Source: a virus (Duplodnaviria > Heunggongvirae > Uroviricota > Caudoviricetes). From it: 38,577 nucleotides of DNA. Shown piece by piece: positions 4,905 to 38,577 of the stretch (positions within the stretch are counted from its first letter, which is position 1; the number at the start of each line of letters is the position of its first letter). The DNA lies in the IMG/VR virus record IMGVR_UViG_3300020057_001228, positions 128,001 to 166,577 of that record; one strand, given 5' to 3'. The translations under genes and the position numbers were made by a program. Below the pieces are notes generated by a model that saw only the letters and a list, made by a program, of their open reading frames with translations, was not told where the DNA came from and did no database searches.

Positions 4905-7484
4905 TTATCCGCACTTGGAATAACCACATGAGGTACAAATGATACAGCCATTAGTGTATCTCATTGTTCCCTCTGCGTCGCAGCTCCCACAATCACCCTT
5001 AGCTACCTGTCCATCTGGCATTTGCATAGCCAGGACTTTGACGATGTGGAACACAAGGGATCCAGCATAGTACTGAGGTAGCCCACTAAGAGTAGTGATG
5101 ACCTCATCAACAGGTACACCATGTCTTAGGTTGAGGCTGATCATACGACCGATGCGACGTGTATTGAGTTGGTGTGCAGATTTGAATAGCTGGTCATCTA
5201 CGAATTCATCGTCAAGGTCATGCTTTTTAGCTAGGCTGACGAGAGCATCAGTGACGGTATCAGTGTCATCTGTATTCTCTCTACGGTTAGTATCAATGAA
5301 GAGCTCGTAAGGATTGTCGTTCTTGAGGCTGAGTGTGAAGTAGAACTTCATCTTGCCAGACTTACGTACGATACGTAGGGCTGGTAGTTCATCTGGAGTA
5401 CGAGGAACAGAACGACCAGGCTCTAGACCATCACTATCAAGATAGCGAAGGATACCAGCTCTAGATCCGTCACGGTAGATCGTAACTCCCTTGAGACCTA
5501 GTTCGTAGGCCAGGAGGTAGATCTTCTCAACGTCTTCTTCTGTCACGTCTTTAGGTAGGTTGATAGTGCTGCTGATAGCATTGCTGGTGTACTTACCGAT
5601 GAGGCCCTGCATGCGTACACGCATCTCAAGGTCTATCTCAGATGTAGTAACCAGATAGTGCTTAACCAAGGGGTCTCCGAGGTCAGCTGCAGATAGGCCA
5701 GCCCTCCGCAGACAATTAGCCACAACACGGTACGTAGTATAACCCCCGTCATCCTTCTTCACCCTTCTCTCGAAGTCGAATTCAAAGATGGGTTCCAGGC
5801 CTGAACCATCGAGCTGGGCTATTAGACTGACTGTACCTGTAGGAGCCACTGTAGAGGTAGCGATGTTACGCACACCGTAAGCCCTGATAAGATCTTTAGT
5901 CTCGTCAGATAGCGTGTTCCACACTGTGGACTTAGCGAACGTATCGAAGTTGTAGGCTGGGCAAGCACCCTTCTCTTTAGCCAGGAGAGCTGTAGCCTGG
6001 TACTCAGAGTCATTCTTAAGTACCATAATACGCTCAACGAGAGCAAGAGCTTCCTTGGAATCGTAACGAAGTCCAAGCATGACAAGCATGTCAGCTAGCC
6101 CAGTGATACCAATACCAAGGCGACGGTAGTCCTTGGCCGCTTCTTCCTGCTGACGTAGAGCCTGCCGGCCTTCGTTAACAGTATGAATGTTGTCCTGAAC
6201 GCGTACTGCCAGCCTGGCATTGATCTCAAACTTGTCGAAATCAAACTCAACGACACCGTTAGCGCTACGTGTAACAAACATAGTCAGGTTGTGGTGACCT
6301 AAGCAGCACGGCTCGTAAGCCGATAAGCCGATCTCACCACAAGGATTAGTCGTTAGGAACGGGGCCTTGGCTGTCCATGCACGCTTGAAGTTACCTCTAA
6401 AGATAACGCCAGGCTCAGCTGACTTCCAAGCAGAGTGGATGATCTTCTTCCATAGGACTTTTGCCTTCTCTTTGCGGTAGACCTTAATGGGATACCCATT
6501 AGCCTTCCACTTCTCGAAGTCACCATCCCAGCGGGTGTCATAGATCGTAGCTGCAGCTTCACGCTTGCGCAGCTCTACCACATACTCCTCGTCCACATTG
6601 TAGCCATCGTACATCAGCATGTAACCAGACTGACGCTTACGCCAGACGGATAGATACTGTGCATCTGTTTCTATTGGGCAGTTGCTAATGTCAGGAAACC
6701 AGTATTCAAATTCCCTGTCATTAATAACCGCATCCATAAACTCATCAGAGATATGGGGGGAGATGTTTGCCGACGAGACCTTACGACGGTCACCAAAGGT
6801 ATCATTGAACTTCTTGGCGAGCGTAGGTGTATGCCTAGCCATCTTCTCAAGCTGTTCAGTCCACCCATCGTCCTTGATGCCAACAAAGGCATGGACGTCT
6901 GGGTGCTCACCATCAATGGAAAGCATCTCGGCACCACGACGACCCTTCTGGGCAATCGTAGCCGTGTTAGTGCTGTACAGATCCATGAAGCTGACTGCAC
7001 CAGGCGCTTCACTTCTATTAGACCTTGTAGGAGCACCAGCTGGACGTAGGATACCAATGTGGTTACCTACACCGCCATGCTTAGCATACGTGCGAGCTGT
7101 TTGTGTCAGACATGTCATGATGCCATACAAGCTATCTTCCAGGATCGGAATGGTATAGCAGTTGTTGTAGGATTCGTTCCTACCTGTGGCACCTAAACCG
7201 AACATAACCCGGCCACCGAATACGTATGTGAAGTCCTTCATCATTTCCATGATGACTGCGTACCACTTGTTTATGTCAGACTTCTCACCTAGAGCAGCAC
7301 CATAAGCTAGACGCTCCCAGAAACGATAGAGGTTTGGCTCACCGTTCCAGTAGTCCTCAGGTGCTGCGTACTTATTCGTGAAGACATCTGCAGCGATTAA
7401 GTTATCGCCATAGACCTTCTGTAGGGTGTAGTTCTCATACTCCTTTGCATCTCTGAGATGTTCCGGAACGAGTGAGCTCACCAT
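4905..7484 (-). CDS. nrdJ: class II (adenosylcobalamin-dependent) ribonucleotide reductase
   Basis: NCY, GGVG, RRGA, ANIS, EPG, TNPCGEI, LGIGITGLAD, APTGTVS, SSTINLP, KGVTIYRDGSR; C-terminal TSCPD-like domain and CxxC...CxxCGYSKCG. True start is ATG 7484 with AGGAGG. No nrdB/F is present in the window. Confidence 0.93.
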   Translation of the reverse strand: MVSSLVPEHLRDAKEYENYTLQKVYGDNLIAADVFTNKYAAPEDYWNGEPNLYRFWERLAYGAALGEKSDINKWYAVIMEMMKDFTYVFGGRVMFGLGATGRNESYNNCYTIPILEDSLYGIMTCLTQTARTYAKHGGVGNHIGILRPAGAPTRSNRSEAPGAVSFMDLYSTNTATIAQKGRRGAEMLSIDGEHPDVHAFVGIKDDGWTEQLEKMARHTPTLAKKFNDTFGDRRKVSSANISPHISDEFMDAVINDREFEYWFPDISNCPIETDAQYLSVWRKRQSGYMLMYDGYNVDEEYVVELRKREAAATIYDTRWDGDFEKWKANGYPIKVYRKEKAKVLWKKIIHSAWKSAEPGVIFRGNFKRAWTAKAPFLTTNPCGEIGLSAYEPCCLGHHNLTMFVTRSANGVVEFDFDKFEINARLAVRVQDNIHTVNEGRQALRQQEEAAKDYRRLGIGITGLADMLVMLGLRYDSKEALALVERIMVLKNDSEYQATALLAKEKGACPAYNFDTFAKSTVWNTLSDETKDLIRAYGVRNIATSTVAPTGTVSLIAQLDGSGLEPIFEFDFERRVKKDDGGYTTYRVVANCLRRAGLSAADLGDPLVKHYLVTTSEIDLEMRVRMQGLIGKYTSNAISSTINLPKDVTEEDVEKIYLLAYELGLKGVTIYRDGSRAGILRYLDSDGLEPGRSVPRTPDELPALRIVRKSGKMKFYFTLSLKNDNPYELFIDTNRRENTDDTDTVTDALVSLAKKHDLDDEFVDDQLFKSAHQLNTRRIGRMISLNLRHGVPVDEVITTLSGLPQYYAGSLVFHIVKVLAMQMPDGQVAKGDCGSCDAEGTMRYTNGCIICTSCGYSKCG

Positions 7485-7527
7485 CGATTTCCTCCTGGTA
7501 CGTTGTCTATGAAAATGAAATTCTAAT

Positions 7528-8028
7528 CTAGGTGGCTCTGGACCACAACTCATAATGATATGAGTATCCAAGGGTGGAATGTTTACGGCTAACTCTGTTA
7601 TCCAAAGTCCACTCGTCCCAATCGATGGGAGGGAAGAACTTATCACAACCAAAGCTCTCGTCGATCCTAGTGAGGTACATAGAGTTAGCTAGAGGGAGAG
7701 CTTGCTTGTAGACATCGCCACCGCCAATGATGAACATTGGTGCATAAGCTGTATGTATAGCTTCCTCTAGGTTGTTACAAAGGAAGATTGGCGGAGTGTT
7801 CTTCGTCAACATGATGGTCTGGTTGACCTTCCTGGTGAGGATAATGTTAGTCCTTCCAGGGAGAGTCTTAGGCAGGCTTTCAGCCGTCTTAGAACCCATG
7901 ATGATAGGATAACCCATCGTCAGATCTTTGAACCGCTGTAGATCCTCTGCGATGTTCCACGGCATATCACCGCCTCTAGCAATACCCATATCAGAATCTA
8001 CTGCTGCGATGATAGAGACGTGATGCAT
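7528..8028 (-). CDS. folA: dihydrofolate reductase
   Basis: IIAAV..GIA..GDMPW..EDLQRFK.LT.G..IIMG.KT.ESL..LPGRTNIILTR, FIIGGGDVY, YLTRI, DKFFP. Start at ATG 8028. Confidence 0.96.
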   Translation of the reverse strand: MHHVSIIAAVDSDMGIARGGDMPWNIAEDLQRFKDLTMGYPIIMGSKTAESLPKTLPGRTNIILTRKVNQTIMLTKNTPPIFLCNNLEEAIHTAYAPMFIIGGGDVYKQALPLANSMYLTRIDESFGCDKFFPPIDWDEWTLDNRVSRKHSTLGYSYHYELWSRAT

Positions 8029-8065
8029 GAAAACCCCACAGTTGAGATTGTTTGTATAATGTATA

Positions 8066-8238
8066 TAGGCCCTCGGCCCACTCACGTGGTCCTCAGGCCT
8101 ACGATTTTTATCTAGACTCCACTTAGTGTTCGGCTAGATCAGAAGTACTCGAAAGTAGATTCTAGTCGAACTTAGACTTACTTAAGTCTACTAGGCGGAG
8201 TTCCTCCACTTGAGCGTCCCGGCTGAGTCGTCGTACTG
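8066..8238 (-). ncRNA. candidate structured non-coding RNA of unknown family
   Basis: A 230-nt gap in an otherwise tightly packed region contains five hairpins. On the minus strand these have UUCG and GUGA (GNRA) loops and tandem G.A pairs. A TATAAT lies just upstream. Confidence 0.55.
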
Positions 8239-8243
8239 GTCTA

Positions 8244-8271
8244 ATTATACAGAACTTGTGCTACACAGCAA
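8244..8271 (-). promoter_or_regulatory. sigma70-type promoter upstream of the structured RNA and folA
   Basis: TTGCTG-16 nt-TATAAT with a perfect -10 box at 8244..8249. Confidence 0.5.
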
Positions 8272-9148
8272 TGGGTAAGATGATCCCAGGATGAGATTCG
8301 TAATCGAGCAGCTTAAAATCTTCGTAGACGTAATCATCGAGGTTCATTCTAGGAGTGAACGTAAGACCTGGTGCTTTGAATGGTTCCCTAGCCAACTGCG
8401 TTCTCATACCTTCTTCGTGGTTTGTATAGATGTGTGCATCCCCAATCGTATGCACGAAGAACCTAGGTAGAAGATCACAGACCTGGCATAGAAGAATCTG
8501 GAGTAAACTGTAGCTTGCGATGTTGTAAGGAACGCCTAATCCAATATCACCACTACGTTGGTATAGCTGCATGTCTAAGTGTCGCTTGCCATTCGAAGTC
8601 TCATTACTAACGTAGCAATGGAACATCGTGTGGCACGGAGGTAGAGCCATCTTGTCAATGTCTGAAACGTTCCAGGCACTGACGATATGTCTCCGGCTAT
8701 CTGGGTTGTTCTTGAGACCGTCTACTAGGTTAGCTATCTGATCGATAGGAGTCTTTCTAGCAAACAGCTCGCAGCCGTCGCCAGCGTCATCAACCATACC
8801 CGCTGCCCAATACGTTTCCCAAGATCTCCACTGTTTCCCATAAATAGGACCCAGCTCCCCGTTCTGGTCAGCCCAAGCCGACCAAATAGGAACCTTGTAA
8901 TCTTCTAGTTCTCTACAGTTAGTAGAGCCTTTCAAAAACCACAGAAGCTCTCTTACTATACCTTCCCATCGTTTACCATCTAACCTCTTAGTTGTAAGCA
9001 AAGGAAAGCCTGCACGTAAATCGTACCGTGATTGCGTACCAAATACACTAATGGTACCTGTACCTGTACGGTCATCTCTACGTTCACCGTAAGAGAGCAC
9101 CTGCTCAACTAGGTTTAAATACACCGATTCGTTTCTGTTCTCTGCCAC
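8261..9148 (-). CDS. thyA: thymidylate synthase (classical ThyA)
   Basis: DRTGTGT, FPLLTTK, ELLWFL.G, GPIYGKQWR, DSRR, ALPPCH, YQRSGD.GLGVPYNIASY, GDAHIY. Confidence 0.98.
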   Translation of the reverse strand: MAENRNESVYLNLVEQVLSYGERRDDRTGTGTISVFGTQSRYDLRAGFPLLTTKRLDGKRWEGIVRELLWFLKGSTNCRELEDYKVPIWSAWADQNGELGPIYGKQWRSWETYWAAGMVDDAGDGCELFARKTPIDQIANLVDGLKNNPDSRRHIVSAWNVSDIDKMALPPCHTMFHCYVSNETSNGKRHLDMQLYQRSGDIGLGVPYNIASYSLLQILLCQVCDLLPRFFVHTIGDAHIYTNHEEGMRTQLAREPFKAPGLTFTPRMNLDDYVYEDFKLLDYESHPGIILPIAV

Positions 9149-9794: not shown

Positions 9795-10124
9795 TCAGTT
9801 CTGCTCGATACTTACTGTAAGCCCCTGCCCCCAGCCTTCTAATTGATCCTTGTACATCTCGGCGTGCTCCTTGGGAGTTGTCTTCACGATAGCCTTGCCC
9901 TGGTTGTGAATCTCCCACGTCTTACTCTCCGCTTCTGCTCTACTGAGGTTACACACGCTCTTGAGGCCACCTGTGACCTCTTCAAAGGTGTTGTGCTCTG
10001 TGTTATGGACAATGACGTTCCAGTCACCACCAGAGCCTGTTCCTGTACCTTGTGTGACCTTGTCCTTAGTGGGCGTTGCGGTCATGACAGGAAAGTTATC
10101 AAGCACGCTAGCATAGTTGTACAT
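9795..10124 (-). CDS. clpS: ATP-dependent Clp protease adaptor ClpS-like protein
   Basis: WNVIVHN..HNTFEEV...L..V..LS..EA....WEIH..GKAIV.....EHAE.Y...L....LTVSIE matches the ClpS core; flexible N-terminal extension. Confidence 0.9.
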   Translation of the reverse strand: MYNYASVLDNFPVMTATPTKDKVTQGTGTGSGGDWNVIVHNTEHNTFEEVTGGLKSVCNLSRAEAESKTWEIHNQGKAIVKTTPKEHAEMYKDQLEGWGQGLTVSIEQN

Positions 10125-11309: not shown

Positions 11310-12206
11310 CTAGAAGTTGCCAGGAGCAACTTGAAACACCGTAAGGCCAAGAGACCTCATGTGGTTCACAACCTGATCGCGGTCATCGAAGACCACATCT
11401 ACGTAATACTCGGGAAGGATATGCGTCTTGTATAGCTCTTCTTTGATCACATAATCGGGACGGTTGTCCCCTGTGGTTCTCATGAAGAGTCCTACGCTCT
11501 CGATCCCGTGCTTTGCCAACGCTGTTTCTGTCTGTGTGCGGTACTTGTTTTCCCGGCCTGAGAGTAGAATCAGTGGTAGCCCCCAGTGCTGTTGGTACGC
11601 ACGAATAGCGTTAGCTACTGGAGTATTCAATGGATCACGATCACATGTACTGGCGTCGAAAGGATTGCGACCATTGAGAAGGAACAGAGTTCCATCCAGG
11701 TCAGACACAATGCAACGCGGCTTGGTGGAATCGTTAATGAATGGTGTATCCGAGAGTAGCTTTTTGAAGTACTTCTCATAGGTCTCTGTGATGGCTTTGA
11801 CTCCAACAGGTTTATCCCGCTTAGAGTCTCGGTCCAGACAGACATGCAGAGGAGTATCAAACAGCTTGATCTCTACCTCTACGGTAGCTGGGAAGCTAGC
11901 TCTAGCTGTGAGGCTGACTGCTAGGTCCTGTAGCCGCGTGAGGTGTGGCTCGTAGCCATGGGTATTATCCACGACTACGTTCTTGTGGTTGAGGAGTGCT
12001 TGAGTGATGATCGAGGATTCGATCTCGACCGTGGTCTTCTCATTGTTACGGGTCCATTGACCATCGTAGAGCATAACCCGAAGGTCATCTTTGCTGGCTC
12101 TAACCCAGGAATCTGGATTCGTCTTTACAAGGTTTCTAGCAAAGGTAGATTTACCGGATGCTTGCAGGCCCCGAAGAACTAGTAGCTTCAACGTATTCGT
12201 GCTCAT
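11310..12206 (-). CDS. pseT: polynucleotide 5'-kinase / 3'-phosphatase (T4 PNKP-like)
   Basis: P-loop GLQASGKST, DDLR, VVVDNT; HAD phosphatase DLDGTL, LSGR, MR..GD.RPD..IK, FDDR..VV. Confidence 0.95.
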   Translation of the reverse strand: MSTNTLKLLVLRGLQASGKSTFARNLVKTNPDSWVRASKDDLRVMLYDGQWTRNNEKTTVEIESSIITQALLNHKNVVVDNTHGYEPHLTRLQDLAVSLTARASFPATVEVEIKLFDTPLHVCLDRDSKRDKPVGVKAITETYEKYFKKLLSDTPFINDSTKPRCIVSDLDGTLFLLNGRNPFDASTCDRDPLNTPVANAIRAYQQHWGLPLILLSGRENKYRTQTETALAKHGIESVGLFMRTTGDNRPDYVIKEELYKTHILPEYYVDVVFDDRDQVVNHMRSLGLTVFQVAPGNF

Positions 12207-12630
12207 CGTTTCTCCTAGTTAGAACGTGTGGGTATACAAGATCATCAATAGTCTTGTGAGGGTCAAGAACCCTCTCACCCATATAGCAGAACGCTTCCAT
12301 CAATTCATGTCGCACAGTCAGCTCTACAGCGTTCCATGCTTTCATGACTACCCTGGTCTCATCAGCGTCAACAGGGATGAACACCCCGCCACCATAGCCA
12401 GTCTCTATCTTACCCGTCGTAGTATCTGGCCTTTGAAAGGTTGGCCAGATGACGAAGCCCATTACGTGAGTCTCGTTCATATTGACGAGCACGCCACCTT
12501 TGTAGCCTACAGAAGCGTAGCCACCCTTCCTGTAAAGCTCTTGAATCTTCCAGCTCCACCCCATATCTACACAGGAGGGTTTAAAGGTAATCCCATCTAG
12601 GATTACTTCTATATCACGTAGTATGAGAAT
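12151..12630 (-). CDS. hypothetical protein, start uncertain (ATT 12630 or ATG 12564)
   Basis: The frame is open from 12639. A strong GGAGG lies 5 nt before ATT 12630, while ATG 12564 has no RBS. The protein contains FQRPDT.TG...GYG and RHELMEAF.Y.GERVLDPH. Confidence 0.6.
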   Translation of the reverse strand: MLILRDIEVILDGITFKPSCVDMGWSWKIQELYRKGGYASVGYKGGVLVNMNETHVMGFVIWPTFQRPDTTTGKIETGYGGGVFIPVDADETRVVMKAWNAVELTVRHELMEAFCYMGERVLDPHKTIDDLVYPHVLTRRNDEHEYVEATSSSGPASIR

Positions 12631-12639
12631 GAGGACCTC

Positions 12640-12882
12640 CTACAGGTGTATTGGCCTATGTGGGTACAGTGTTACGTATACCTTAGGGTTCAATGCACCT
12701 ATTCTTTGTGTGGGTGAATGTGGGTCAGCTAGCTCTGGGTTCTCGTCCTCTAGCTTCTTGAGCTCGTGGTAGAGTTTGTCCCATTCGTAGTCGCTGATCT
12801 TTGGCGCGTCGTGGTTATAGTAGAGTTGGCTATGATACTCAACATCTTCTCTAAGCTGGAGCACCTTCTCTTGCAGTGTCAT
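12640..12882 (-). CDS. stand-alone NAD+-dependent DNA ligase domain Ia protein
   Basis: LRE.VEYH...YY..DAP.ISD.EWD.L..EL..LE...PE.....SPTQRIG is LigA subdomain Ia; no adenylation domain follows. Confidence 0.88.
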   Translation of the reverse strand: MTLQEKVLQLREDVEYHSQLYYNHDAPKISDYEWDKLYHELKKLEDENPELADPHSPTQRIGALNPKVYVTLYPHRPIHL

Positions 12883-13963
12883 CTAGTGTTACTCCTAGTC
12901 CGTCGAAACCAGATCTGCCTTCCGGTTCCAACATACCCCAGATAGCCTTGTGGTAACCCTTGCGGTCTAACATCTTGAACATGATATAAGCCCAAGGATC
13001 ACCGTACCCAAGAATGACAACAGCTAGAGCTTTGCGATCTGCACCAAAGGGCAACGCCTTCTGAGCCTCATCTAGCTTCTCTCTAGCTTTGTCTTCGACA
13101 TCTCTGTACTTCTGCCGGAACTCCCGTTCCATAGACTTCATCCAGTTGAACATCTCGTCAGGAATATTCTCTGGGATGTCCCCTGGCAGACCGTGAACTT
13201 CTTTCATGTAGAGCATGTTCCAAATCTGTTTGGGGTTCATGCCACTCATGATGCTGTTTAGTCTGCAGTACTCTGAGAACTTGATCTTGACTCGATACCC
13301 ACTAGAGAAGCGAACGATATATCCTTCGCGATTCTCATACGTATGATTGGTCTCACTCTCTTGCACAATGCTTTCGAGAGTGGATCCTTCATACCGGTGG
13401 GCAGTGGGGAAGCCAAAGGAAGAGTCGAGCTTCAGTTCCTCACCCGTATCTGTGTTACGGATACCAGTAAGGATTAAATCCTCCTGAGTACCATAATCTA
13501 CAAGAATACGAGTCGTAGGATGCAGCAGCTCAAACATGTACGTGTTGGCTGTGTCTAACGCAGCGAGCTGGTCTTTGTATCTATTTTCAAACAACGCCTT
13601 AGCGATACCAACGTGATCAGAGGTGAAAGACCCTGAGGACGTTACTATTGGTAAACCGTCGAACCATGAAAGGGTGATCAAAGACCCATCTAGCTTGTCG
13701 TATACATCGTAATCTAGACCTACAGGAATCTCTTCCAGTGGCCGCTCTCCGTAGTTGAAGAACTTGTTGTAGGGCCTAGAGACAACTCTTCCGTCGTCAC
13801 TGATCACAATACCCCTGCAAGCAGAAGTAATGTAGTTCCAGGCCTGTGAGTACACACACAGAGGTGTGTATTTATAGATGGTTAGAGGTAGGGTAGCATG
13901 TCTACCAGACCTTACCAAACCCTCATTAACATACGGTTGAATCATCTCGTTGGTGAGCAACAT
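12851..13963 (-). CDS. RNA ligase, T4 Rnl1 family
   Basis: CRGIV, KFFNYGE, motif I KLDGSL, FEL, motif IV EGYIV, motif V KIK..EY. Start at ATG 13963 with GAGG. Confidence 0.92.
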   Translation of the reverse strand: MLLTNEMIQPYVNEGLVRSGRHATLPLTIYKYTPLCVYSQAWNYITSACRGIVISDDGRVVSRPYNKFFNYGERPLEEIPVGLDYDVYDKLDGSLITLSWFDGLPIVTSSGSFTSDHVGIAKALFENRYKDQLAALDTANTYMFELLHPTTRILVDYGTQEDLILTGIRNTDTGEELKLDSSFGFPTAHRYEGSTLESIVQESETNHTYENREGYIVRFSSGYRVKIKFSEYCRLNSIMSGMNPKQIWNMLYMKEVHGLPGDIPENIPDEMFNWMKSMEREFRQKYRDVEDKAREKLDEAQKALPFGADRKALAVVILGYGDPWAYIMFKMLDRKGYHKAIWGMLEPEGRSGFDGLGVTLDDTAREGAPA

Positions 13964-14348
13964 CAGTAGCACCTCTTCTAGCATCTTTGAAGTTTTTAAC
14001 TAGACGAAGGCGCCTTCTAGCGCTACTAATTTCACTCAGCAAGCTACCGTAATGGGTCAGTGGTAGGACCATAGCTTGTCTAAGTTCACTACCCTTTTTA
14101 ATGAAGTCTTGCTTAGCGGCGTAAGCACCAGGCCCTGTTGCTGGGGTCAAGCCAAGTAGCTGCATAGAATACCAGACCATATTCTCGTCTAAACCATCTA
14201 TGTGGTCAGCTGATATCTTGGACCACGACATTCTACCTCCAGCTCCAAGGACTACTGTCTGCCCTGGCGTAGGATTTGGGGCTATATGCCTAGCACTGAT
14301 TGTTCCCATACTCACTGGTGAAAATCCTGTTATATTGTGGTGCGACAT
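13926..14348 (-). CDS. hypothetical protein
   Basis: 140-aa ORF with AAGGA RBS. Confidence 0.65.
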   Translation of the reverse strand: MSHHNITGFSPVSMGTISARHIAPNPTPGQTVVLGAGGRMSWSKISADHIDGLDENMVWYSMQLLGLTPATGPGAYAAKQDFIKKGSELRQAMVLPLTHYGSLLSEISSARRRLRLVKNFKDARRGATDVAHQRDDSTVC

Positions 14349-17251: not shown

Positions 17252-18403
17252 TTAAGCTTTAGCAGCTTCAGCAGGCAGCGTGGTGCGGAACATATCCAGG
17301 TTACGAGTACGCCACAGTTTGAAATCTTCATTCTTGATGATCTCAATGTTGACGCCCTTCACCTTCCCAATGTCAGTGACAAACAGAGTAGCAAACTCTG
17401 TCTCAAACTTGTCGACATAACGGATGGCGTTACTCAAATACCCCTGGAACTGGAGAGCCTTCTCAGGCCTATTGTAGAACTGCACTAGCTTGGAGACGAT
17501 ACCAGAGATGGTTGCATAACGCAGACCAACATCCTCAGGCACCTCGACGTTTGTATAGCCACTAACGATGGCTTCGATGTTCGGCAGCTTATCCGTGATA
17601 GCGATGTAGTTGATGAAGGTAGTAGCTGCAGCAAACCCGATAGCACCAGACAATGCGAAGTGGAGAGCCACATTCTTATCAATGGGGATATGCGTCTTGT
17701 TGAGCTTACCCTTCAAGATACGATCAGCATACTCCCATGTACGAGGAGAGGGGAACGCAGGTTCATCAGAATCACTTCTGAAGTCGAACAGACCGGTCAC
17801 ACCCTTCCAGCTGACGAAACCAATGATCCTAGGATCAATCTTCGTGTTACCATCAGCACCAACCTGAAGTGCCCACTCTTTCCAGACATCAATGTCAGGC
17901 TGGATCTCGATGTGAACGAATCTATTGGCCAATGCTTTAGCCAGCTTGTATACAACGGAGCGATCACTCACCCGGTTACCAGCAGCTAGAACACTCCAAC
18001 CTGGAGGTAGAACAGCATCACCAACTCTACGGTCTAGCACCAGCTGATACGCAGAGGCTTGAACCATAGGAGGAGCAGAGCTCAGCTCATCGAGTAGCAG
18101 GATGCCACGCTTGCCGTGAATCTCCTCAGAGGGGAAGAAGCTAGGGATAGCCCAGTGAGCCCTCTTCAACTCACGGCCGTTCACCATGTCGTTGAGGAAG
18201 TACGGTAGACCACGAATGTCTGACGGGTCCATCTGAGATAGACGTACGTCGATCAGAGCCATCTCGTTCTTGTCCGCTAGCTCTTTGATCTTGGCGCTCT
18301 TGCCAACTCCAGGAGGGCCCCAGATGAACATAGGAGTACCCAGCTCAGCTTCAATGATTTCACCAGCTACGTTGAGATTGGTAGAGATGTTTTCGTTACT
18401 CAT
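17252..18403 (-). CDS. MoxR-type AAA+ ATPase (copy 1)
   Basis: Walker A GPPGVGKS, DVRLSQMDPSDIRGLP, Walker B LLLDEL, AAGN, ALANRF, PSPRTWE. Confidence 0.93.
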   Translation of the reverse strand: MSNENISTNLNVAGEIIEAELGTPMFIWGPPGVGKSAKIKELADKNEMALIDVRLSQMDPSDIRGLPYFLNDMVNGRELKRAHWAIPSFFPSEEIHGKRGILLLDELSSAPPMVQASAYQLVLDRRVGDAVLPPGWSVLAAGNRVSDRSVVYKLAKALANRFVHIEIQPDIDVWKEWALQVGADGNTKIDPRIIGFVSWKGVTGLFDFRSDSDEPAFPSPRTWEYADRILKGKLNKTHIPIDKNVALHFALSGAIGFAAATTFINYIAITDKLPNIEAIVSGYTNVEVPEDVGLRYATISGIVSKLVQFYNRPEKALQFQGYLSNAIRYVDKFETEFATLFVTDIGKVKGVNIEIIKNEDFKLWRTRNLDMFRTTLPAEAAKA

Positions 18404-18411
18404 GTTGGTCC

Positions 18412-19545
18412 TTAGCCTGTTATTCCAGTGAGTGGTAATACGGTGCCGAACTTTGGTATGTCCGTTCTATTGCTCAACACCCAAATTACTTCATAGTCTG
18501 GAGCTGGTGGCATCTCTTCGTAGAAGTCACCATCAGAGGCTATGATCAAGGCATCAATTGGCTCATGAACATTCTGTTCAATCCAATCAAACACAGGACT
18601 AACGTGGGTACCACCACGGTCTTCAAATCCATACCCCTCTGCAGGGATATTATCTCCAGTGATAAACTTCTTGTGACTGTGCAAGTGGGAAGAGAATGCA
18701 AGCACATCAATCTCAAAGTTTCTAAACGATCCCATGATGTCATTCAAGACGCCTACGAAGTACTGAAGCTCTTTACTGGACACTGATCCAGAGGAGTCAA
18801 TAGCTAAGACGATCCTAACCATACTTCCTGTATAGCCGTACATGTAGATCCCATGGGCGAATAGCTTCTTGTGTGGAGGTACGATGCAGTGGTCATCCTT
18901 GATAACAGATTTGATCGTCGCGTCCAGCAGTGAGTAGAAGTCAATCTTAGGGCTGAGATAGCTATCAATAACCTCTGCAACCCCATTAGGAAGCTTACCA
19001 GCAGCACGTGCCTTCTGGGCAGCCTGGATAGACCTATTGACCCAGTCACGCTTGTCACAGGCATCTATAGGAGTACCGTCAAGCATGTCATGGTCGTCAA
19101 GGGTCTTCATATCCTTGAGCTTCTCTTTGAGATCTGGGTCGTTCATGATGTAATCATAAACTTTCTCAGAGTTCCAACCCTTAAACTTGTAGGGTTCGTA
19201 CAGACAGCCTTTGATGAACTCAAACTTAGCATCAACCAGGATACTATTGATCACGTAGTCTGTTGCTAGATTCCAGGCGTGTTTGTTGCGATCTGAAACA
19301 CGATCATTGTTATGAACATGTTTAAAGACGACGTGCATGACTTCGTGGGCCATGGCAAACATGAGCTCAGCATCAGATAAACCATCTACGAATTCTTTGT
19401 TGAAGTAGATGTTCCTGCCATCGGTGGCCAAGGTGGACATCAGCTTTGTCTCAACAAGTCGAAGATACATCACCAAGCTCCCAAAGAAGGGGTGATCTAA
19501 TAGCAGGTTTACCCTAGCTTTGCTTACACGTTTAGCTGTGTCCAA
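18412..19545 (-). CDS. HExxH metallopeptidase-like + vWA domain protein (DUF2201 type, copy 1)
   Basis: PFFG, ATDG, HEVMH, WNLATDYVIN, LDDH; MIDAS DSSGS, GGT, SDG. Start TTG 19545 after GGAGG. Confidence 0.9.
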   Translation of the reverse strand: MDTAKRVSKARVNLLLDHPFFGSLVMYLRLVETKLMSTLATDGRNIYFNKEFVDGLSDAELMFAMAHEVMHVVFKHVHNNDRVSDRNKHAWNLATDYVINSILVDAKFEFIKGCLYEPYKFKGWNSEKVYDYIMNDPDLKEKLKDMKTLDDHDMLDGTPIDACDKRDWVNRSIQAAQKARAAGKLPNGVAEVIDSYLSPKIDFYSLLDATIKSVIKDDHCIVPPHKKLFAHGIYMYGYTGSMVRIVLAIDSSGSVSSKELQYFVGVLNDIMGSFRNFEIDVLAFSSHLHSHKKFITGDNIPAEGYGFEDRGGTHVSPVFDWIEQNVHEPIDALIIASDGDFYEEMPPAPDYEVIWVLSNRTDIPKFGTVLPLTGITG

Positions 19546-19636
19546 AAATCCTCCGATGTGAACACCTTTACCAGATCGATACCATCTATGATAATGATGG
19601 AACATTCTGGTGCATAGTTAGATTAGGAGCGTCGTC

Positions 19637-24020: not shown

Positions 24021-25175
24021 CTATTCCATTTCAGCCTTCACCTTTGTAAGCTTCTCTTTGTACAACCCAAGCAGCCGTGAACTACTCAGTACGAGTGGTT
24101 GGAATCGTTTACCAAAGTCTGTACGATAGTCTACCATGCTCACTACAAGCTTAGACCCCATCTCTGGTGGAACTAGGCAGAGGAAGGCAGACACGCTGGA
24201 GAACTGATCCTTACTGATGGACTTCATGTTCTTCAGGTAGAGGTACAGTCTGTGAACCGTGATGGCTAACAGAGAGTTCATACCCTGAGAAACCCAGGAG
24301 TCGATCTTATCCTCTACATCCTCACCAGCCAAGATAACTTCAGGGCTGATAGGCTTCTCAGTGGATTTCCATGCATCAAAGGTAGCAAGGAACTCAACAC
24401 CAAAGGTACATGTAGCGATAAGACTGAGTAGCGTTCTATCGTCTTTGATGTACGGATAGATACGAGCGAAGATCATACGCATACGAGGATTGCTGTCAGG
24501 CTTTGTGATGGAGACTCTTTCAGTCTTCAGTCCGTCCCTGTTAGCCAACCAGAAGTTCTTGAGATCTTCATGAACGTCCTGGATCTCCATCTGTTCTAGC
24601 TCTACATCGATAGCCACGTTGTATGGCACGCTAAGGAACCTAGAGAGCTGAGCTCTATCTAGTTGGGAGACGTTGTACTCCACTGTGTCAGGGTTGTCTG
24701 TGATCACAATAGCCCATGTGTTGGGAATCGATACACCAGCAAACGTACGTTCCAGAGAGAACTGTTGTAAGGCCTGTTGGATGTGTGGGAGAGCCCTAGA
24801 CATGTCATCGATGTTCAGGATACCTGTAGTGCCTTCTTTAGGCCAATCCTTTGGCACGGCTACCACAGTCTCTTTACCACCATCTGCAGAGTCAGATACC
24901 GTACTGAGTCCAAAGATCTCAGCAACGTCAGTCTTCTGTGTATCCAACTTCAGGTAGCCGATACCAGCCTTACGGCAGTAGTCTTCTACAATAGCTGTCT
25001 TACCCACACCCGGAGCACCAACTAAACGTATCACTACGTGTCTAGGTCTCAGGTTAGGATTACCTGACGCATCCAATGTAGCATGGTAAGCAGCATTAAT
25101 CAGCCTCATATAGGGGTTGATACTAAACTTACTGAGGCCTTCGCTACATACCTGTGTTGGTGTTTTATCTGACAC
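24021..25175 (-). CDS. MoxR-type AAA+ ATPase (copy 2, Walker B DD variant)
   Basis: Walker A GAPGVGKT, Walker B ILNIDDMSRA, ITDNP, LDRAQLSRF, NPR. Confidence 0.88.
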   Translation of the reverse strand: MSDKTPTQVCSEGLSKFSINPYMRLINAAYHATLDASGNPNLRPRHVVIRLVGAPGVGKTAIVEDYCRKAGIGYLKLDTQKTDVAEIFGLSTVSDSADGGKETVVAVPKDWPKEGTTGILNIDDMSRALPHIQQALQQFSLERTFAGVSIPNTWAIVITDNPDTVEYNVSQLDRAQLSRFLSVPYNVAIDVELEQMEIQDVHEDLKNFWLANRDGLKTERVSITKPDSNPRMRMIFARIYPYIKDDRTLLSLIATCTFGVEFLATFDAWKSTEKPISPEVILAGEDVEDKIDSWVSQGMNSLLAITVHRLYLYLKNMKSISKDQFSSVSAFLCLVPPEMGSKLVVSMVDYRTDFGKRFQPLVLSSSRLLGLYKEKLTKVKAEME

Positions 25176-25179
25176 TGTA

Positions 25180-26634
25180 CTACCTCTGTACTTTTAGTCT
25201 TACTACTTCACCGCAGTGCTCTGGAAATACTTCGTCAGTGGTGCATACCCACATGGTCCGAGCAAAGATCAACTCGGGTGGTGGTTTCTGTGCTGCACCA
25301 TCTGTCAACACAATGATACCTGTATAGTTCTTACGCTTCCAGATACCACGTACGTGTTTAAGAGCCTCGATAAAGCTAGTGCCGCCTCTACCCTTGATCG
25401 CGTAGCCTGCTGACCTTCTGAAGGGGCTTATATCCTGTACAGAGAAGTCAAACTGTATGACGTCGATCTGTACTCCATTCCTATAAGCACCCTCAACCTC
25501 AGACAGGAAAGAGGTTAACTCTTTGTTGCTCACAGAGCTAGAGGTATCAAGCAGGAATGCTATATAGGTTCCAGGAAGAGGTTTGATCTTCGGGGGCTGT
25601 CCATACTTGTTCAGCTGACCTGACGTAGCCCTAAGCTGAATCCCACCACAGTATCCTAAGAACCTTCTGATGTAATGCTGCCATGGTAGCTTAGACGCTT
25701 TACCAGCTTCGATGATCTGCTGAATCTTACCAGCTACGTCACCACAGTACTTCTGGAACATCTCAGGGTCTGTCATCTCTTTAGCAGAGGACATCTCCTG
25801 TGAGAGCTTGAACTGAACAGCTTCTTTCATGTTGGGATCTTCGACAGCTGTCTCCCAGTAGTCATGGTTAGAAGCTTCCTTCATCTGGGCTGTTATATCA
25901 GCAGCAGAGGAACCTTCGTCTTCACCTTCAGATGGCTCATCGCCCTCTTCTTCAGAGGATGTACCTTCATCATCGGACTCAGACTCTTCATCACTCTCAC
26001 CAGAGCTATCACTCTCACCAGAGCTATCACTCTCACCAGAGCTATCACTCTCACCAGATCCACCCATATCAGATCCAGAGCCACTAGACTCGCCTTCACC
26101 TTCACCCTCTTCTACAACCTCAGGCAGTAGGCTATATACCCACTTAACCCATTCGTAGTAAGACAGGCTGGTAGCAAACCCTTTAGGCATAGAGTTAGTT
26201 ATGTTCTGTGTAGGAGGAACAAACTTCTGCATAGCATCAAGGAAACGCTTAGGTGTAATGGAGTTAGGAAGCAGCAAAGCTCCTTGAGCCTCCATCATGA
26301 CGTTGATAGCCATATCACAGGCTACACTGTAGAGAGGGTCGCCAAACTCAGGCTGCATAGGATGTTCGTAGATCCAGTGTAGAACCTCGTGCTCCAGTAG
26401 GAACAGTCGGCTCTTCAAGGTAATGGTATCCAGTGCCTCTTCATTAATTAGAAGCACTGAGGAGCCTTCTAGCCCCTCGTAAGTGATACCAAAGTACGCG
26501 ACATCCTTACTAGGTTTGTACCTCATCTGAAGAACCCAAGCATAATAGAAAGGGTTCCTGGTCAGAAGAGCAATTACCGTTTCGCTATAAGCTTGGGTCA
26601 AACCTTTCCCCCTTGTCGTCCAGAAGAGTGGCAT
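25180..26634 (-). CDS. HExxH metallopeptidase-like + vWA domain protein (DUF2201 type, copy 2) with acidic linker
   Basis: PFY, HEVLH, VACDMAIN, HDYW, LPW; MIDAS DTSSS, GRGGTSF, TDG. Confidence 0.9.
   Translation of the reverse strand: MPLFWTTRGKGLTQAYSETVIALLTRNPFYYAWVLQMRYKPSKDVAYFGITYEGLEGSSVLLINEEALDTITLKSRLFLLEHEVLHWIYEHPMQPEFGDPLYSVACDMAINVMMEAQGALLLPNSITPKRFLDAMQKFVPPTQNITNSMPKGFATSLSYYEWVKWVYSLLPEVVEEGEGEGESSGSGSDMGGSGESDSSGESDSSGESDSSGESDEESESDDEGTSSEEEGDEPSEGEDEGSSAADITAQMKEASNHDYWETAVEDPNMKEAVQFKLSQEMSSAKEMTDPEMFQKYCGDVAGKIQQIIEAGKASKLPWQHYIRRFLGYCGGIQLRATSGQLNKYGQPPKIKPLPGTYIAFLLDTSSSVSNKELTSFLSEVEGAYRNGVQIDVIQFDFSVQDISPFRRSAGYAIKGRGGTSFIEALKHVRGIWKRKNYTGIIVLTDGAAQKPPPELIFARTMWVCTTDEVFPEHCGEVVRLKVQR
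25990..26058. repeat. 18-bp tandem repeat, about 3.8 copies
   Basis: ATCACTCTCACCAGAGCT units encoding (SGESDS)n in the acidic linker. Confidence 0.95.
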
Positions 26635-26953: not shown

Positions 26954-28194
26954 AACCCTCTACTCCTAATGGCAGTGTTAGCCTGCTGGAGGTACGTACC
27001 GAGGTACTCGTACTCCTTCTGTATAGAGTAATAACTCACTCTCTCTAGCAGGTGTTGAGCAGTAGTGTTCCCAGTCTTAGCAACTTTGTAAGCACTAGCC
27101 ACGATTTGTATAAAGCTCTCTAGGCCAATACACTCTAAGATGAACTTGTTGACATTGTGTCGAGTCGTATGTTGCATACGAAGTACCGATAGTACACCTC
27201 GCCACGTAGCAGCGTTAAGAGTTTCAGGATACTCCAACCAGAGAGTCCTCAGACAGCTCAGAGTAGGACTATCACCATCGGTGTGATCGATCGTGAGCTG
27301 GATAGCTTTAGTGACCGTTCTAGCGAGTCCTACAGGGTCTGGGTGTGACTTGAGGTAGCTTACGATACCCGTGGTAAGTACAGAAGACCACTCTCGTATA
27401 CTCTGCTTGTCATTAATGCCAGCACCGTAAGAGAGTTCGATCAGATCACAAACTCTTCTTATAGATACTTCTGTTGGTCTGTTGGTCGTTAGTTTCAGAA
27501 GCTCCATGTCTTCAACCACTAGAGAGTCAATGACGTCGCTGGGTACAGTTGGATGGAGTACACAAGCTCGTAGTGTTAACTTCTTATCAGCATCGTTAAC
27601 ACTGGTGAGTGTAGGATGGTCAGCAACTGCTGGTTTCAATCCTGCCCAGGTCATGATCAACCAGGCTGGACATGCAATAGCCGTCGTGACTATCTCGTTG
27701 ATAGTTAGAACACTCTTCGGTTGTGTATTCAGTATCCGTAAGCCAATGTCTTCAGGTAACAACCTGCTACGGAATGGCATAGATAAGTCGATACCACCCA
27801 CCCGTTCATAGAGACAGGCTAGCATCTCCCAGCGGCCGTTGTGAATCCAGGAGGTTGCTATATCATGTCGATCTTGTGGGTGAGAGTTAGCTTTGAGCTG
27901 ACCAAAGATGATACTTTTGTACGGATCATGGTCTATTTCCTGATCCATAAATCGTACAGTGTGCGGGTAGTTAGATGCTAAGGATAAGAGCTGGAGGGTA
28001 GTTAGCATAGACCTAGTGTTAGCTAAATAAGATGCTGCACTTTGGTAGATGTCACGCCCTACTCTGGTAAGGAGGAAGTGGAGTGCTGCTTCAGCTTCGG
28101 CTGGACTCTGTGAGTCACCTACAACATCGGCAACAGTATCATGCCGGTCAATCTTCTCTAGTCTTTCCAGCATTGCTAAGAACGATGTGTCCAC
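26950..28194 (-). CDS. hypothetical alpha-helical protein (414 aa)
   Basis: Long ORF with GGGGAG RBS and GTG start; no recognisable motif. Confidence 0.8.
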   Translation of the reverse strand: MDTSFLAMLERLEKIDRHDTVADVVGDSQSPAEAEAALHFLLTRVGRDIYQSAASYLANTRSMLTTLQLLSLASNYPHTVRFMDQEIDHDPYKSIIFGQLKANSHPQDRHDIATSWIHNGRWEMLACLYERVGGIDLSMPFRSRLLPEDIGLRILNTQPKSVLTINEIVTTAIACPAWLIMTWAGLKPAVADHPTLTSVNDADKKLTLRACVLHPTVPSDVIDSLVVEDMELLKLTTNRPTEVSIRRVCDLIELSYGAGINDKQSIREWSSVLTTGIVSYLKSHPDPVGLARTVTKAIQLTIDHTDGDSPTLSCLRTLWLEYPETLNAATWRGVLSVLRMQHTTRHNVNKFILECIGLESFIQIVASAYKVAKTGNTTAQHLLERVSYYSIQKEYEYLGTYLQQANTAIRSRGL

Positions 28195-29469: not shown

Positions 29470-31716
29470 CTACCAGGTCCCTGTAGTTGCGACGGTTGTT
29501 CCCCAGTTCCCGGTACCTGTGATGGTTATCGTCGATCCTGACGTTATTGTCGACGTCGACGGCTGGTACTGGACTTTTGGGACAGCGGATACTCCACCAA
29601 CAGCCTTGAGCAGAGCGATCTGCTCTGTGATATAGCTAGCTTCGTCGCTGTCACGCTTGAAGATATCCTTGGTAGCAACGTTGTAGTACTCACAGAAAGC
29701 TACAACATCGTCACCAGAGAACTCACGAGCTAGGATGGGTCTAAGCTGACCTAGTGGTGGACGGCAGCTGGCTGCGATCGCACGACTACTCTTCTTAAAC
29801 ATGTACTTAGAAGCACGTGTGATAGCCTTCTGTAGCTTCTCATGAAGTACTGCTCCCTCAGGAACAAACGTCACGGCAAACTTGAAGTCATCAGGCGTAG
29901 CTGTTGGGTACACGGTAATCCTAGACCCTTGAGGGATAGGCATACCACGCCATTCCATAGGACTGGCAACTGCCATCTCTAGACTCAATGCAGCTAGCTC
30001 AGGGTTATCTGGGTTGGCTGTACGAGCGTTCTCATAGAGACCTGCAAAGGTACCAGAGATATGATTACGGATATCATCTTCGTAGATATCATCCCTATTG
30101 ACGTGATACAGAGCTGCAAGCAGGTTCTCACCACGACCTCCAATGTAGGCAGGCCTAGTGGTCAAGACGGTTCTACACACCCCAGGAACACGGAACGAAG
30201 TCGTAGCCCCTGTGTAGACTGTATCAGGACCCTCAGTAGACATAGTGAAGTAATCAGCTCCACCATTCTCATGAGCTGCTGGTGACAACAGACCAGAGAA
30301 CGCAGCACGAGCAACTTGTCTACCCCAGTTATTGATTGCTAGAACTGCCTGCGGGACAACGTCTCCCAGAACCTCATTGATAAGCTTGTTTACCGTATTG
30401 CCATTCTTATCAAGAGTCTTATGTACAGAGAGTTGCAGCAGTAGAGTATGTACAGGCATGAGGATCTGCTCCCCACCACCGTTGCGTCCTGTGTACTGAC
30501 CAAGGAAGGCATCGATCTCAGGGATGTACCTAGTTATCCGACTCAACGAGTTGATATAGTTAGAGCCAATTTGCATAGCCTTCTCTGTACCAACGTAGTG
30601 TTGAAGAACGATAGCCCTAAGGTTATCCATCTCCTTCTTGTGAACCTGGATAGCTTTGTCTAGAGCTATGTCTAACTTCGGATTGGTAGTACGGACATAG
30701 GTGACAGGAGCCTTCCGTGTGGTCAGTCTAGAACGGATCTCTGAGTAATGCTGTTGCGCTACTCTAGCCCAGTTCACACTGTTGTTAGCAATCGCAGCTA
30801 CCTTATAGCACTCTGCAGTCACAAAGATCGACTGAGGATTCACTGGGATCTCTTGATCACCAACTACTGCTACATAGCCCTCTGGTGTGGACTTACAAGG
30901 GTAGGTAAAGAACTTGTTGCCCTCAGATAGGACCAGCACTTTATTATGCTCACCAGTAATGGCGTCTACGTACTTGAAGCTATCTTTAGCCATCGCGCGA
31001 TACGGTACACCATTCAGCAGGAGCACAGACTGGTCTCTAACCACCTGATCATTACCAGTACGAGAGTTCTCACCATTCATAAGAGCGGTGAGGTCTCTGC
31101 CAGATACAGGAACAGGATAGTCCGTAACGTCTGCCAAGCTTAGCTTGGACCATGCTCTGAACATACCACGTCTAGGCTCCTGACTCTGTGCTGTAGAGAA
31201 CTTGGGGTTCTTCGCTAGGATCTCAGGCTTGATGAAGCACAGGTTACCTTCCAAGTGATGGTTGAATGGAGAGCTAAGGAAGTACGTGATAGCCTGCATC
31301 AGGCTCGTACTCTGTCCGTGCCCACCAAAACAGATCTTACCGTTAGACCAAACGTTACCAACCTGGAATGCATTCAGTCTAGAGTACGTCACATCGAGTG
31401 AAGATCTAGTAAAGACACGTAGCTTGTCGTAAGCTGTTCGACCTGGAGTCATATCCCATAGGAACACAAGATTCGGAACAGGGACGGTGAGTCGCTCATC
31501 CAGAAAGATAACTTCTCTATTGTGAGCTGGAAGTTCAAAGGCGAACGTAGTGTTCAAGCCTCTAACCATCTTCAACCCAGAGAATTCCAACATAGTTGCC
31601 ATTGCTGGGATAGTAACCCGCTGTGGTTTCACTACGTTTCCATTGGGGAGTACATTCTCTCCAACTTCAACTAGGACACAGGGGGTACCCCCGATGACTG
31701 CTTCGATTGTATCCAT
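29470..31716 (-). CDS. large protein with N-terminal prokaryotic E2 domain (Prok-E2_D / PRTRC protein B-like)
   Basis: VPVPNLVF...LRVF...L.AF..GNVWSNGKICFG...YFLSSPFNHHL matches the E2 family D pattern (P.LVF; NV...G.hC.G with catalytic Cys; F..S.F); sits beside E1, Ubl and JAB genes. Confidence 0.8.
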   Translation of the reverse strand: MDTIEAVIGGTPCVLVEVGENVLPNGNVVKPQRVTIPAMATMLEFSGLKMVRGLNTTFAFELPAHNREVIFLDERLTVPVPNLVFLWDMTPGRTAYDKLRVFTRSSLDVTYSRLNAFQVGNVWSNGKICFGGHGQSTSLMQAITYFLSSPFNHHLEGNLCFIKPEILAKNPKFSTAQSQEPRRGMFRAWSKLSLADVTDYPVPVSGRDLTALMNGENSRTGNDQVVRDQSVLLLNGVPYRAMAKDSFKYVDAITGEHNKVLVLSEGNKFFTYPCKSTPEGYVAVVGDQEIPVNPQSIFVTAECYKVAAIANNSVNWARVAQQHYSEIRSRLTTRKAPVTYVRTTNPKLDIALDKAIQVHKKEMDNLRAIVLQHYVGTEKAMQIGSNYINSLSRITRYIPEIDAFLGQYTGRNGGGEQILMPVHTLLLQLSVHKTLDKNGNTVNKLINEVLGDVVPQAVLAINNWGRQVARAAFSGLLSPAAHENGGADYFTMSTEGPDTVYTGATTSFRVPGVCRTVLTTRPAYIGGRGENLLAALYHVNRDDIYEDDIRNHISGTFAGLYENARTANPDNPELAALSLEMAVASPMEWRGMPIPQGSRITVYPTATPDDFKFAVTFVPEGAVLHEKLQKAITRASKYMFKKSSRAIAASCRPPLGQLRPILAREFSGDDVVAFCEYYNVATKDIFKRDSDEASYITEQIALLKAVGGVSAVPKVQYQPSTSTITSGSTITITGTGNWGTTVATTGTW

Positions 31717-31730
31717 TGTTCCGTCCCGCT

Positions 31731-31765
31731 AAAAAGGGGGTCAGGAACACCACGTTCCCAACCCC
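31731..31765 (-). terminator. intrinsic terminator between the Ubl and E2 genes
   Basis: GGGGTTGGGAAC-GTGGT-GTTCCTGACCCC followed by CTTTTT. Confidence 0.85.
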
Positions 31766-31773
31766 AAGGTCTA

Positions 31774-32430
31774 CTACCTGTCCCGAACTGAAATGGTCAC
31801 ACGGATAGCGTCACGCTCAACACCCAGCGCATTGGCTAGAGTTGCGATGATACTGTCACGTGCGGCATCTGTAGCCTGACGAGGCGTGGCCGGTGCTGTA
31901 GCTGTAGCTACGGGCACTACCACTGCTGCACGCTGGGCAGCCTTAGCATCGAGTGTCTGCTTTAGCAGGACAGCTGCGATGAGCTTCGGGCTCCCAACGT
32001 CTGCATACTCCAACCTTTCGGTTGCTGACACAACGACACTATGCTCAGCATGAGTCTCGTCGTTGGAGAAGTGGAAGATACCTGGCTCGTCTGCGTCAGC
32101 ATCAACGCTCCAGCCGGCATCCGCCAATTCCCCTAGCAGCCGGCGTGCAGAGGATGTGTCAAAAGACTGCTTGGTTCCAGTAGTGGCTACCAGAGTCACA
32201 TAGACTTCGGTAGTACCAGCGGGAAGCTGGGCCACGATGGAATCAGCCGAGGTATCCAGACCACCGAGGTTCTGGTTGTTGACGTTCACGGTAACCCCTG
32301 TGAGCTGGTTCTCACCGATGAGGCCACGGGACATCGCGTTCTCAAACAGCTGACGAAGGGTCCGACCCTGCCAGTTACGAGTGATAGCGGTCTCATTGTT
32401 GACCGTTAGGTTGAATACTGTTTCAGCCAT
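31774..32430 (-). CDS. ubiquitin-like (beta-grasp) precursor with long C-terminal extension
   Basis: The N-terminal ~88 aa follow a beta-beta-alpha-beta pattern (FNLTVN; TLRQLF; VTVNVNN; VYVTLVATTGTK). The tail resembles the ...GTKG end of PRTRC protein C. Lies between E1 and E2; AAGGAG RBS. Confidence 0.65.
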   Translation of the reverse strand: MAETVFNLTVNNETAITRNWQGRTLRQLFENAMSRGLIGENQLTGVTVNVNNQNLGGLDTSADSIVAQLPAGTTEVYVTLVATTGTKQSFDTSSARRLLGELADAGWSVDADADEPGIFHFSNDETHAEHSVVVSATERLEYADVGSPKLIAAVLLKQTLDAKAAQRAAVVVPVATATAPATPRQATDAARDSIIATLANALGVERDAIRVTISVRDR

Positions 32431-32502
32431 TTAGCTGTCGTCTCCTTGGAGCGATGGTGTGTTGTAATTCTAGAAAATACGCTCTAACTAGGCGACGTAG
32501 CC

Positions 32503-38202: not shown

Positions 38203-38577
38203 TCACTTGATCTTGAGCCCGCCATAGAGCTCTAGGAGAACGTCGTCCACTTCCATTACTTCACCGTGCTCCACACAGACACCATCAGCATACTCATGCT
38301 CTCCCATAGAGGGATCGCTGAAGTAGACACTGATCTGTCCGTCGTAATCAATGGTAATCTCAACGTCTCTTTTGTTGACATGCCATTCGATCTGAACACC
38401 ACCATCCCCCAAGGGAACGATACTCGGTGAGGATAGGTTATCAGGCATACCATCTACCAGCTTGATAGCTGCTGCAATGGATACCTCAGAGATCTCATGA
38501 CCTCCATAACTATCCCAGTTTGCTTCTAGCTCCCTGAGTGACTCAATGGAAGCCTTAGTGCTAGTCTTGGAAAACAT
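38203..38577 (-). CDS. conserved-looking hypothetical protein (5' end may extend beyond the window)
   Basis: L.EL..NWDSYG...I...A..L......P.IVP..DGGVQIEW is a pattern I recognise from uncharacterised proteins; function unknown. Confidence 0.7.
   Translation of the reverse strand: MFSKTSTKASIESLRELEANWDSYGGHEISEVSIAAAIKLVDGMPDNLSSPSIVPLGDGGVQIEWHVNKRDVEITIDYDGQISVYFSDPSMGEHEYADGVCVEHGEVMEVDDVLLELYGGLKIK

Follow-up and report, generated by a model that had tools for sequence, protein, structure and literature searches.

What occupies the gap between the thymidylate synthase and dihydrofolate reductase genes of the virus record G000 (166,577 nt, 87% complete by CheckV), a sequence present in microbial-mat DNA runs? 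We addressed this within the window, the whole 38,577-nt stretch of G000 that was analysed. On the minus strand, thyA (8261..9148; phrog_160, E 1e-103) is intact and carries no intron, and folA (7528..8028; phrog_316 over residues 1-164) is complete, with its ATG at 8028. The gap is filled by the element described here, and folA is followed by a minus-strand, nrdJ-like ribonucleotide reductase gene (4905..7484) whose best phage matches are annotated as B12-dependent. Within the folA-nrdJ gap, at 7505-7512, runs X1-X3 all carry a 1-nt insertion and a 1-nt deletion relative to the window, possibly an assembly difference.

The window also encodes, all on the minus strand, ClpS (9795-10124), an RNA repair pair of polynucleotide kinase and RNA ligase (11310-13984), two gene pairs combining an AAA ATPase with a VWA/metallopeptidase protein of DUF2201 type (17252-19605 and 24021-26634), and a ubiquitin-like conjugation cluster (29470-33279) in which a 218-aa ORF lies between Prok-E2_D (a weak match, E 3.5e-5) and ThiF/E1 proteins. 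The capsid protein of G000 matched 10 phage records only, all of them cyanophages, at 29-32% identity. SpoVS is also encoded (L172:14902-15180, minus strand; G000 122901-123179), and since this protein and the strong Shine-Dalgarno sites fit poorly with a cyanophage-like capsid, the host is uncertain.

A preliminary description had proposed that the minus strand of the gap specifies a folded RNA, either a novel ncRNA or ribozyme or a ligand-sensing leader for folA-nrdJ. The TATAAT that it described is present, at 8249-8244 (minus strand), as are all five of its hairpin and helix strings, the UUCG loop, the GUGA (GNRA) loop and the tandem G.A loop of the 3' hairpin. Its failure to recognise a known RNA family is matched by Rfam, which gave 0 matches at gathering score in the window and, at E<=10, nothing that overlapped the element; ARAGORN and Rfam found no tRNA or tmRNA in the window, and no second copy of the element was found in G000. 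Folding of the 186-nt stretch gave a z-score of -2.68 on the minus strand (3 of 200 shuffles equally good) and -2.89 on the plus strand (1 of 200), and the fold of the element exceeds chance modestly. Because these values are near equal, folding energy selects no strand. A folded minus-strand RNA that belongs to no Rfam family was borne out. Across 762 strand-windows of 150 nt in the ORF gaps of the whole genome, the best minus-strand window of the element reached a z-score of -1.05, with many other stretches below -6.

One of the other folded stretches is a multi-branched RNA of about 310 nt just upstream of tRNA-Arg (L173:2985-3300, minus strand; G000 about 26984-27299, outside the window). 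It has a 13-bp closing stem and a CCA end, a z-score of -8.06 (0 of 100 shuffles as good) and no Rfam match over the RNA at E<=1, and as a candidate ncRNA it is far stronger than the thyA-folA element. Further folded gaps lie at G000 26270-26600, 32450-32650, 38300-38560, 39700-40880, 41857-42520, 53680-53900 and 85861-86020 (z-scores of -6 to -11 from 8 shuffles each). In several of them, GC-rich hairpins that resemble terminators recur, each with a conserved hairpin and a strong GAAAGGA ribosome site behind it. A long inverted repeat lies within a small ORF near G000 38400, and a fourth tRNA-like match of low score (34 bits; L174:544-617, minus strand), uncalled by ARAGORN, lies beside tRNA-Phe.

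The best fold of the element is a three-way junction with a separate 3' hairpin; the latter (8102-8065) folds alone at -24.6 kcal/mol and is solid. Several of the helices first proposed are mutually exclusive. The CTAGT/ACTAG and ATCTAG/CTAGAT helices are possible, but as alternatives to the best fold (-58.2 kcal/mol when forced against -60.8 kcal/mol when free), and the supposed GTTCG/CGAAC pseudoknot is an ordinary nested helix with a pair probability of about 0.99. Forcing the long-range TACGA/TCGTA pair costs energy (-57.1 kcal/mol), and two substitutions in a natural variant (8102, 8104) break it. The UUCG loop is closed by a U-A pair rather than the extra-stable C-G. Likenesses to RNase P CR-I and to c-di-GMP RNAs were also considered and set aside, as neither motif had partner strands or an Rfam match.

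The conserved-looking parts of the element instead find counterparts in IA2 group I introns, in the 3' half, which weakens the case for a novel ncRNA or ribozyme class. Read 5' to 3' on the minus strand, the first part (8225..8236) corresponds to J6/7 and the 5' strand of P7, with 9 of 11 consensus positions; it contains A8231, the bulged C8230 and G8229 at the G-site position. Two small hairpins follow at the P7.1 position (8195..8224), the second of which has a 3' strand that can pair instead with 8122-8117 to give a competing helix. Next come GUA and a P7.2-like hairpin with 5 of 5 pairs and an AAGU loop (8175..8191; the best covariance model match in the window, E 2.3), and then a long irregular rod capped by the UUCG hairpin (8128..8171), whose outer helices have pair probabilities mostly of 0.9-1.0. 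From its position the rod would be the P3/P8 equivalent, although in the predicted fold the strand at the P3 position pairs in cis with 8132-8128. The J8/7 position (8120..8127) keeps 2 of 6 consensus bases. The 3' strand of P7 (8114..8119) makes 6 of 6 pairs with 8231-8225, one of them swapped from A-U to C-G. An A-rich linker, variable in the natural variant, lies at the place of P9 (8103..8113), and the stable hairpin with its tandem G.A loop and GUGA tetraloop (8065..8102) takes the P9/P9.1 position. When P7 is forced, the RNA adopts a multiloop like that of an intron, at a cost of 4.8 kcal/mol relative to the free fold. With downstream sequence included, the competing helix is predicted in 99% of the ensemble against 0.03% for P7, in a model limited to secondary structure.

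We evaluated this likeness against phage introns, aligning 15 3' halves taken from Twort, the td intron record and another 12 phage loci. The names P7.1, P7.2, J8/7 and P9.1 on the fetched introns are our own assignments. A block model was built from the 15 phage introns alone; it let the spacers vary freely (0-70 and 15-90 nt) and scored stems by pairing. Scanned over the 167-kb G000, it placed the element first at 17.3 bits, the next independent site scoring 11.2, and the best score in 4,120,470 nt of background was 14.7 bits. Without the mismatched J8/7 block the element reached 27.1 bits against a background best of 15.0. Among the intron loci themselves, 12 of 14 scored 43-52 bits and the others 30.6 and 14.9. 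The score was steady in leave-one-out models (17.3-18.3), was reached by 1 of 20,000 dinucleotide shuffles and by none of 20,000 column-permuted decoy models (maximum 13.3), and fell to -8.6 on the antisense strand. These figures are to be read as a post hoc test, because the model was made only after the P7-like strand pair had been noticed by eye; moreover, the shuffle p of about 5e-5 would fail correction over all 4,227 Rfam families.

MAFFT aligned the element in register unaided, with P7.2 aligned. In this register P7 makes 6 of 6 pairs and keeps the bulged C and the G-C guanosine-site pair, its swapped C-G pair being unique to the element among the 15 aligned rows, the other 14 of which are introns. 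The P7.1/P7.2 extension after P7 is also present, as GUA, a 5-bp stem with the AAGU loop and two hairpins at the P7.1 position. Standard searches were not significant: a profile HMM of the intron 3' halves did not place the element among its 10 matches at E<=50, the corresponding covariance model picked out nothing of the element beyond the P7.2 hairpin (best in the window at 8.4 bits, E 2.3), and RF00028 gave 0 matches at E<=10. A separate block for the intron 3' end fell in register at 4.8 bits, which 22% of 3,000 stretches drawn at random from the genome also attained, and a terminal G in register is absent. Likeness of the element to P4-P5 or P1-P2 of the td intron was rejected, as it overlaps the P7.2 reading, has no pairing partners and is absent from the 5'-half scan.

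The element is not a working group I intron: J8/7, a canonical P9, the terminal G and P1-P6 are all missing, with J8/7 (GAUA) matching at 2 of 6 consensus positions. No P4-P6 scaffold or P3 5' strand lies upstream of P7 in cis. The best 5'-half score in the 87% complete G000 was 14.7, in a coding region, against a background maximum of 18.8, and a search for a P3 partner in trans in three registers gave 0, 0 and 1 weak candidates. There is no P1 with a U.G splice site and no split host gene, thyA and folA each being whole, and a Pfam scan of 51 of the larger ORFs in the genome showed no endonuclease family. The possibility that thyA itself sits inside an intron loop was discarded, the upstream region being packed with ORFs.

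The element shows no differences in runs X1-X3. Freshwater run X4 contained two 151-nt contigs that align to 7984-8132 and 8163-8253, the former with 6 substitutions and 4 gap letters and the latter with 2 substitutions; they leave 8133-8162 uncovered, and we assume from their equal depth of 4 that they belong to a common genome. The located changes are substitutions at 8102 and 8104 with a 3-nt insertion at 8107, in the linker and its edge, a substitution at 8041 in the loop of a hairpin at the folA start and a deletion at 8030, five of the eight substitutions being unlocated. Every located change inside 8060-8132 falls in or adjoins the unpaired linker. Upstream of 8253 the contig continues with 60 unrelated letters, similarity stopping 4 nt upstream of the TATAAT, so that the variant keeps the promoter-like site, element and folA start together and differs upstream. 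It tells little about selection because identity is about 96%, folA start included.

This partial, near-identical variant was the only homolog available for covariation. A blastn search with the element matched none of 50,697 phage records and gave only 3 short chance matches in 72,556 plasmids. Pattern scans returned 5, 33 and 2 loci from the viral_contigs set, none related by inspection or nhmmer, and 0 and 0 loci from genome_contigs. The element was not found in any of the loci collected through thyA (52, 80 and 80), for which the metagenome scan covered 18 of 64 parts and did not take in the contig of the 73%-identical thyA P0002, and scans based on DHFR and nrdJ gave no relative. A covariance model of the single sequence matched 0 of 49, 0 of 46 and 0 of 5 records, in about 100 of some 175 viral loci picked for length, and three capsid relatives were fragments without the element region.

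A candidate sigma70-type promoter is predicted at 8244..8271 on the minus strand, with a TTGC-containing -35 (8271-8266), a 16-nt spacer and the TATAAT, although it is absent from the listing of the consensus promoter scan. The TTGC-to-TATAAT distance is the same in the freshwater variant, in which the spacer and upstream sequence differ, and this conservation (n=2) is consistent with a real promoter. A plus-strand TATAAT at 8055-8060 points into the element from the other side without a recognisable -35 and is probably incidental. The idea that the two TATAAT boxes mark the ends of a MITE was dropped, as no second copy was found in G000, and an N-terminal extension of folA (a longer frame from GTG-8085) was rejected, as the 1-nt deletion at 8030 in the variant breaks the frame. 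A weak hairpin is predicted at 8032..8049 (minus strand) that includes the Shine-Dalgarno-like GGGG of folA and has the variant change 8041 in its loop. The one helix that could couple the domain to this hairpin has a probability of about 0.23 and loses one pair through that change.

The joint retention of promoter-like site, element and folA start in the variant makes a leader for folA-nrdJ the likeliest setting for the element, as had been suggested; for the ligand-sensing part of that suggestion, an expression platform is not predicted. Pairing takes up the folA Shine-Dalgarno bases in either fold, and the 3' hairpin is not succeeded by a U-tract, the terminator scan listing no terminator there, so no switch is predicted. 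Neither a riboswitch nor a new ribozyme class is supported.

These data allow us to propose an origin for the element. It probably descends from an IA2 group I intron, a view taken from one sequence. More tentatively, and at somewhat less than an even chance, we suggest that it is the 3' half, with the P7 catalytic domain, of a phage IA2 intron that has lost its 5' half, and that it would now serve as a non-splicing, structured leader of folA-nrdJ. The break would have fallen in loop L6, the site of the endonuclease ORF in these introns; in 5 of 12 fetched intron loci, the matched 3' half begins where an annotated endonuclease CDS stops or shortly after it. Regions with contacts to the absent half (J8/7, P9 and the terminal G) would then have decayed, the strand at the P3 position would have gained its cis partner, and a new helix would have come to compete with P7. 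Transcription of the leader may start at the promoter-like site directly before it and run on into folA-nrdJ, and the leader would most likely act by protecting the transcript. It would guard the 5' end of a late or second message that raises dihydrofolate reductase and ribonucleotide reductase without dependence on thyA; translation of folA would presumably be governed by the local Shine-Dalgarno hairpin and not by a ligand switch.

It is possible, if doubtful, that the element is instead an unrelated novel phage leader or small RNA with the minimum-energy three-way junction and 3' hairpin, its intron likeness arising by chance. The minimum-energy fold does dominate the ensemble, the standard HMM and covariance searches were not significant, and G000 is rich in folded intergenic RNA with no assigned family. 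Set against this are three blocks in the right order and spacing and a compensatory P7 pair, which together beat 4.1 Mb of background, the shuffles and the decoys.

Rather unlikely, in our view, is that the element is of intron origin but inert, a half left by recombination at the promoter and now decaying without function. Loss of the catalytic J8/7, P9 and terminal G would fit such debris, as would a thermodynamically disfavoured P7 and the absence of homologs from 100 other phage records and every scan. However, the losses cluster in the parts that contact the missing half, both helices are fully paired, new stable helices are present and the located variant changes spare the stems.

That the element is a natural stand-alone group I catalytic domain, released from splicing and rearranged to close P3 in cis, its P7 pocket being a guanine-nucleotide sensor on folA-nrdJ or the whole being the first phage trans-acting half-intron, is improbable. 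Taken singly, a sensor in which ligand bound in the P7 pocket shifts the competing helix to the P7 fold and so tunes folA-nrdJ is very unlikely. The G-site pair and bulged C are kept (PMC3984707 gives P7 as the G site), two exclusive folds are separated by 4.8 kcal/mol, and the element precedes nucleotide-synthesis genes; yet Shine-Dalgarno pairing is similar in both folds, there is no terminator U-tract, and the sole possible coupling helix to the Shine-Dalgarno hairpin (about 0.23) loses a pair at variant position 8041. Hardly credible is that the element still functions as the 3' portion of a group I intron, trans-spliced or permuted, with its 5' half elsewhere: the predicted start at L6, the ORF loop, would suit it, and a partner could be unseen given that G000 is 87% complete and a 198.8-kb contig carries the same proteins, but G000 holds no 5' half above background and only 0, 0 and 1 weak P3 partners, J8/7 and the terminal G are absent, and a complete folA requires no 5' exon.

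The closest known system is the IA2 introns of phages (RB3 td, T4-type; Twort; JSE nrdD; and others), which share with the element the order and spacing of J6/7-P7, the P7.1 region, GUA-P7.2 with its AAGU loop and P7', together with the bulged C, the G-C site pair and a neighbourhood of nucleotide-metabolism genes. Unlike them, the element lacks P1-P6, the GAUA of J8/7, an in-register terminal G and an endonuclease, has the GAAA after P7.2 replaced and an A-rich linker in place of P9, and is intergenic with its own promoter-like site rather than lying inside a gene. Isolated P3-P7/P3-P9 catalytic domain constructs were reportedly made by Ikawa et al. in 2000; such constructs are engineered and are said to keep the P3 pseudoknot and J8/7. 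The element, in contrast, is natural, its P3 partner has apparently moved 3' of P8, and J8/7 is lost. Like the isolated-domain constructs and the Twort P7.1/7.2 subdomain, described in PMC6257700 as a stabiliser, it combines a catalytic domain with P7.1/P7.2 in the absence of P4-P6.

Trans-split mitochondrial group I introns break in the ORF loop, according to PMC3873408, and so resemble the element in being bounded at a loop that bears an ORF in cis relatives; they differ in having a partner piece, flanking exons, breaks mostly in L8 or L9 and the ability to splice. No such partner piece or split gene was found in G000. PMC3984707 assigns the guanosine site to P7 and the catalytic domain to P3/P9, and includes a metabolite-sensing allosteric intron and IStrons, in which intron RNA has likewise been recruited before a gene, although these are complete and splicing. 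Partial model matches in phage genomes belong to whole introns split by long loops according to PMC11878797, PMC8541194 concerns ordinary introns, and PMC10085705 records permutations in nature for other RNAs but gives no group I example. The full-text literature searched, in which few subscription papers are included, yielded no report of a phage group I half that occurs naturally on its own or is spliced in trans.

Were the element debris or its likeness due to chance, it would be one more folded spacer with no assigned family in a genome rich in such spacers. If the ancestry holds and the RNA has been kept, a ribozyme domain would have been recycled as a regulatory leader. The element would then be the equivalent in nature of the isolated catalytic domain made by engineering, would make the group I guanosine pocket testable as a riboswitch aptamer without P4-P6, and would represent a class of intron derivative that Rfam and ordinary covariance searches miss.
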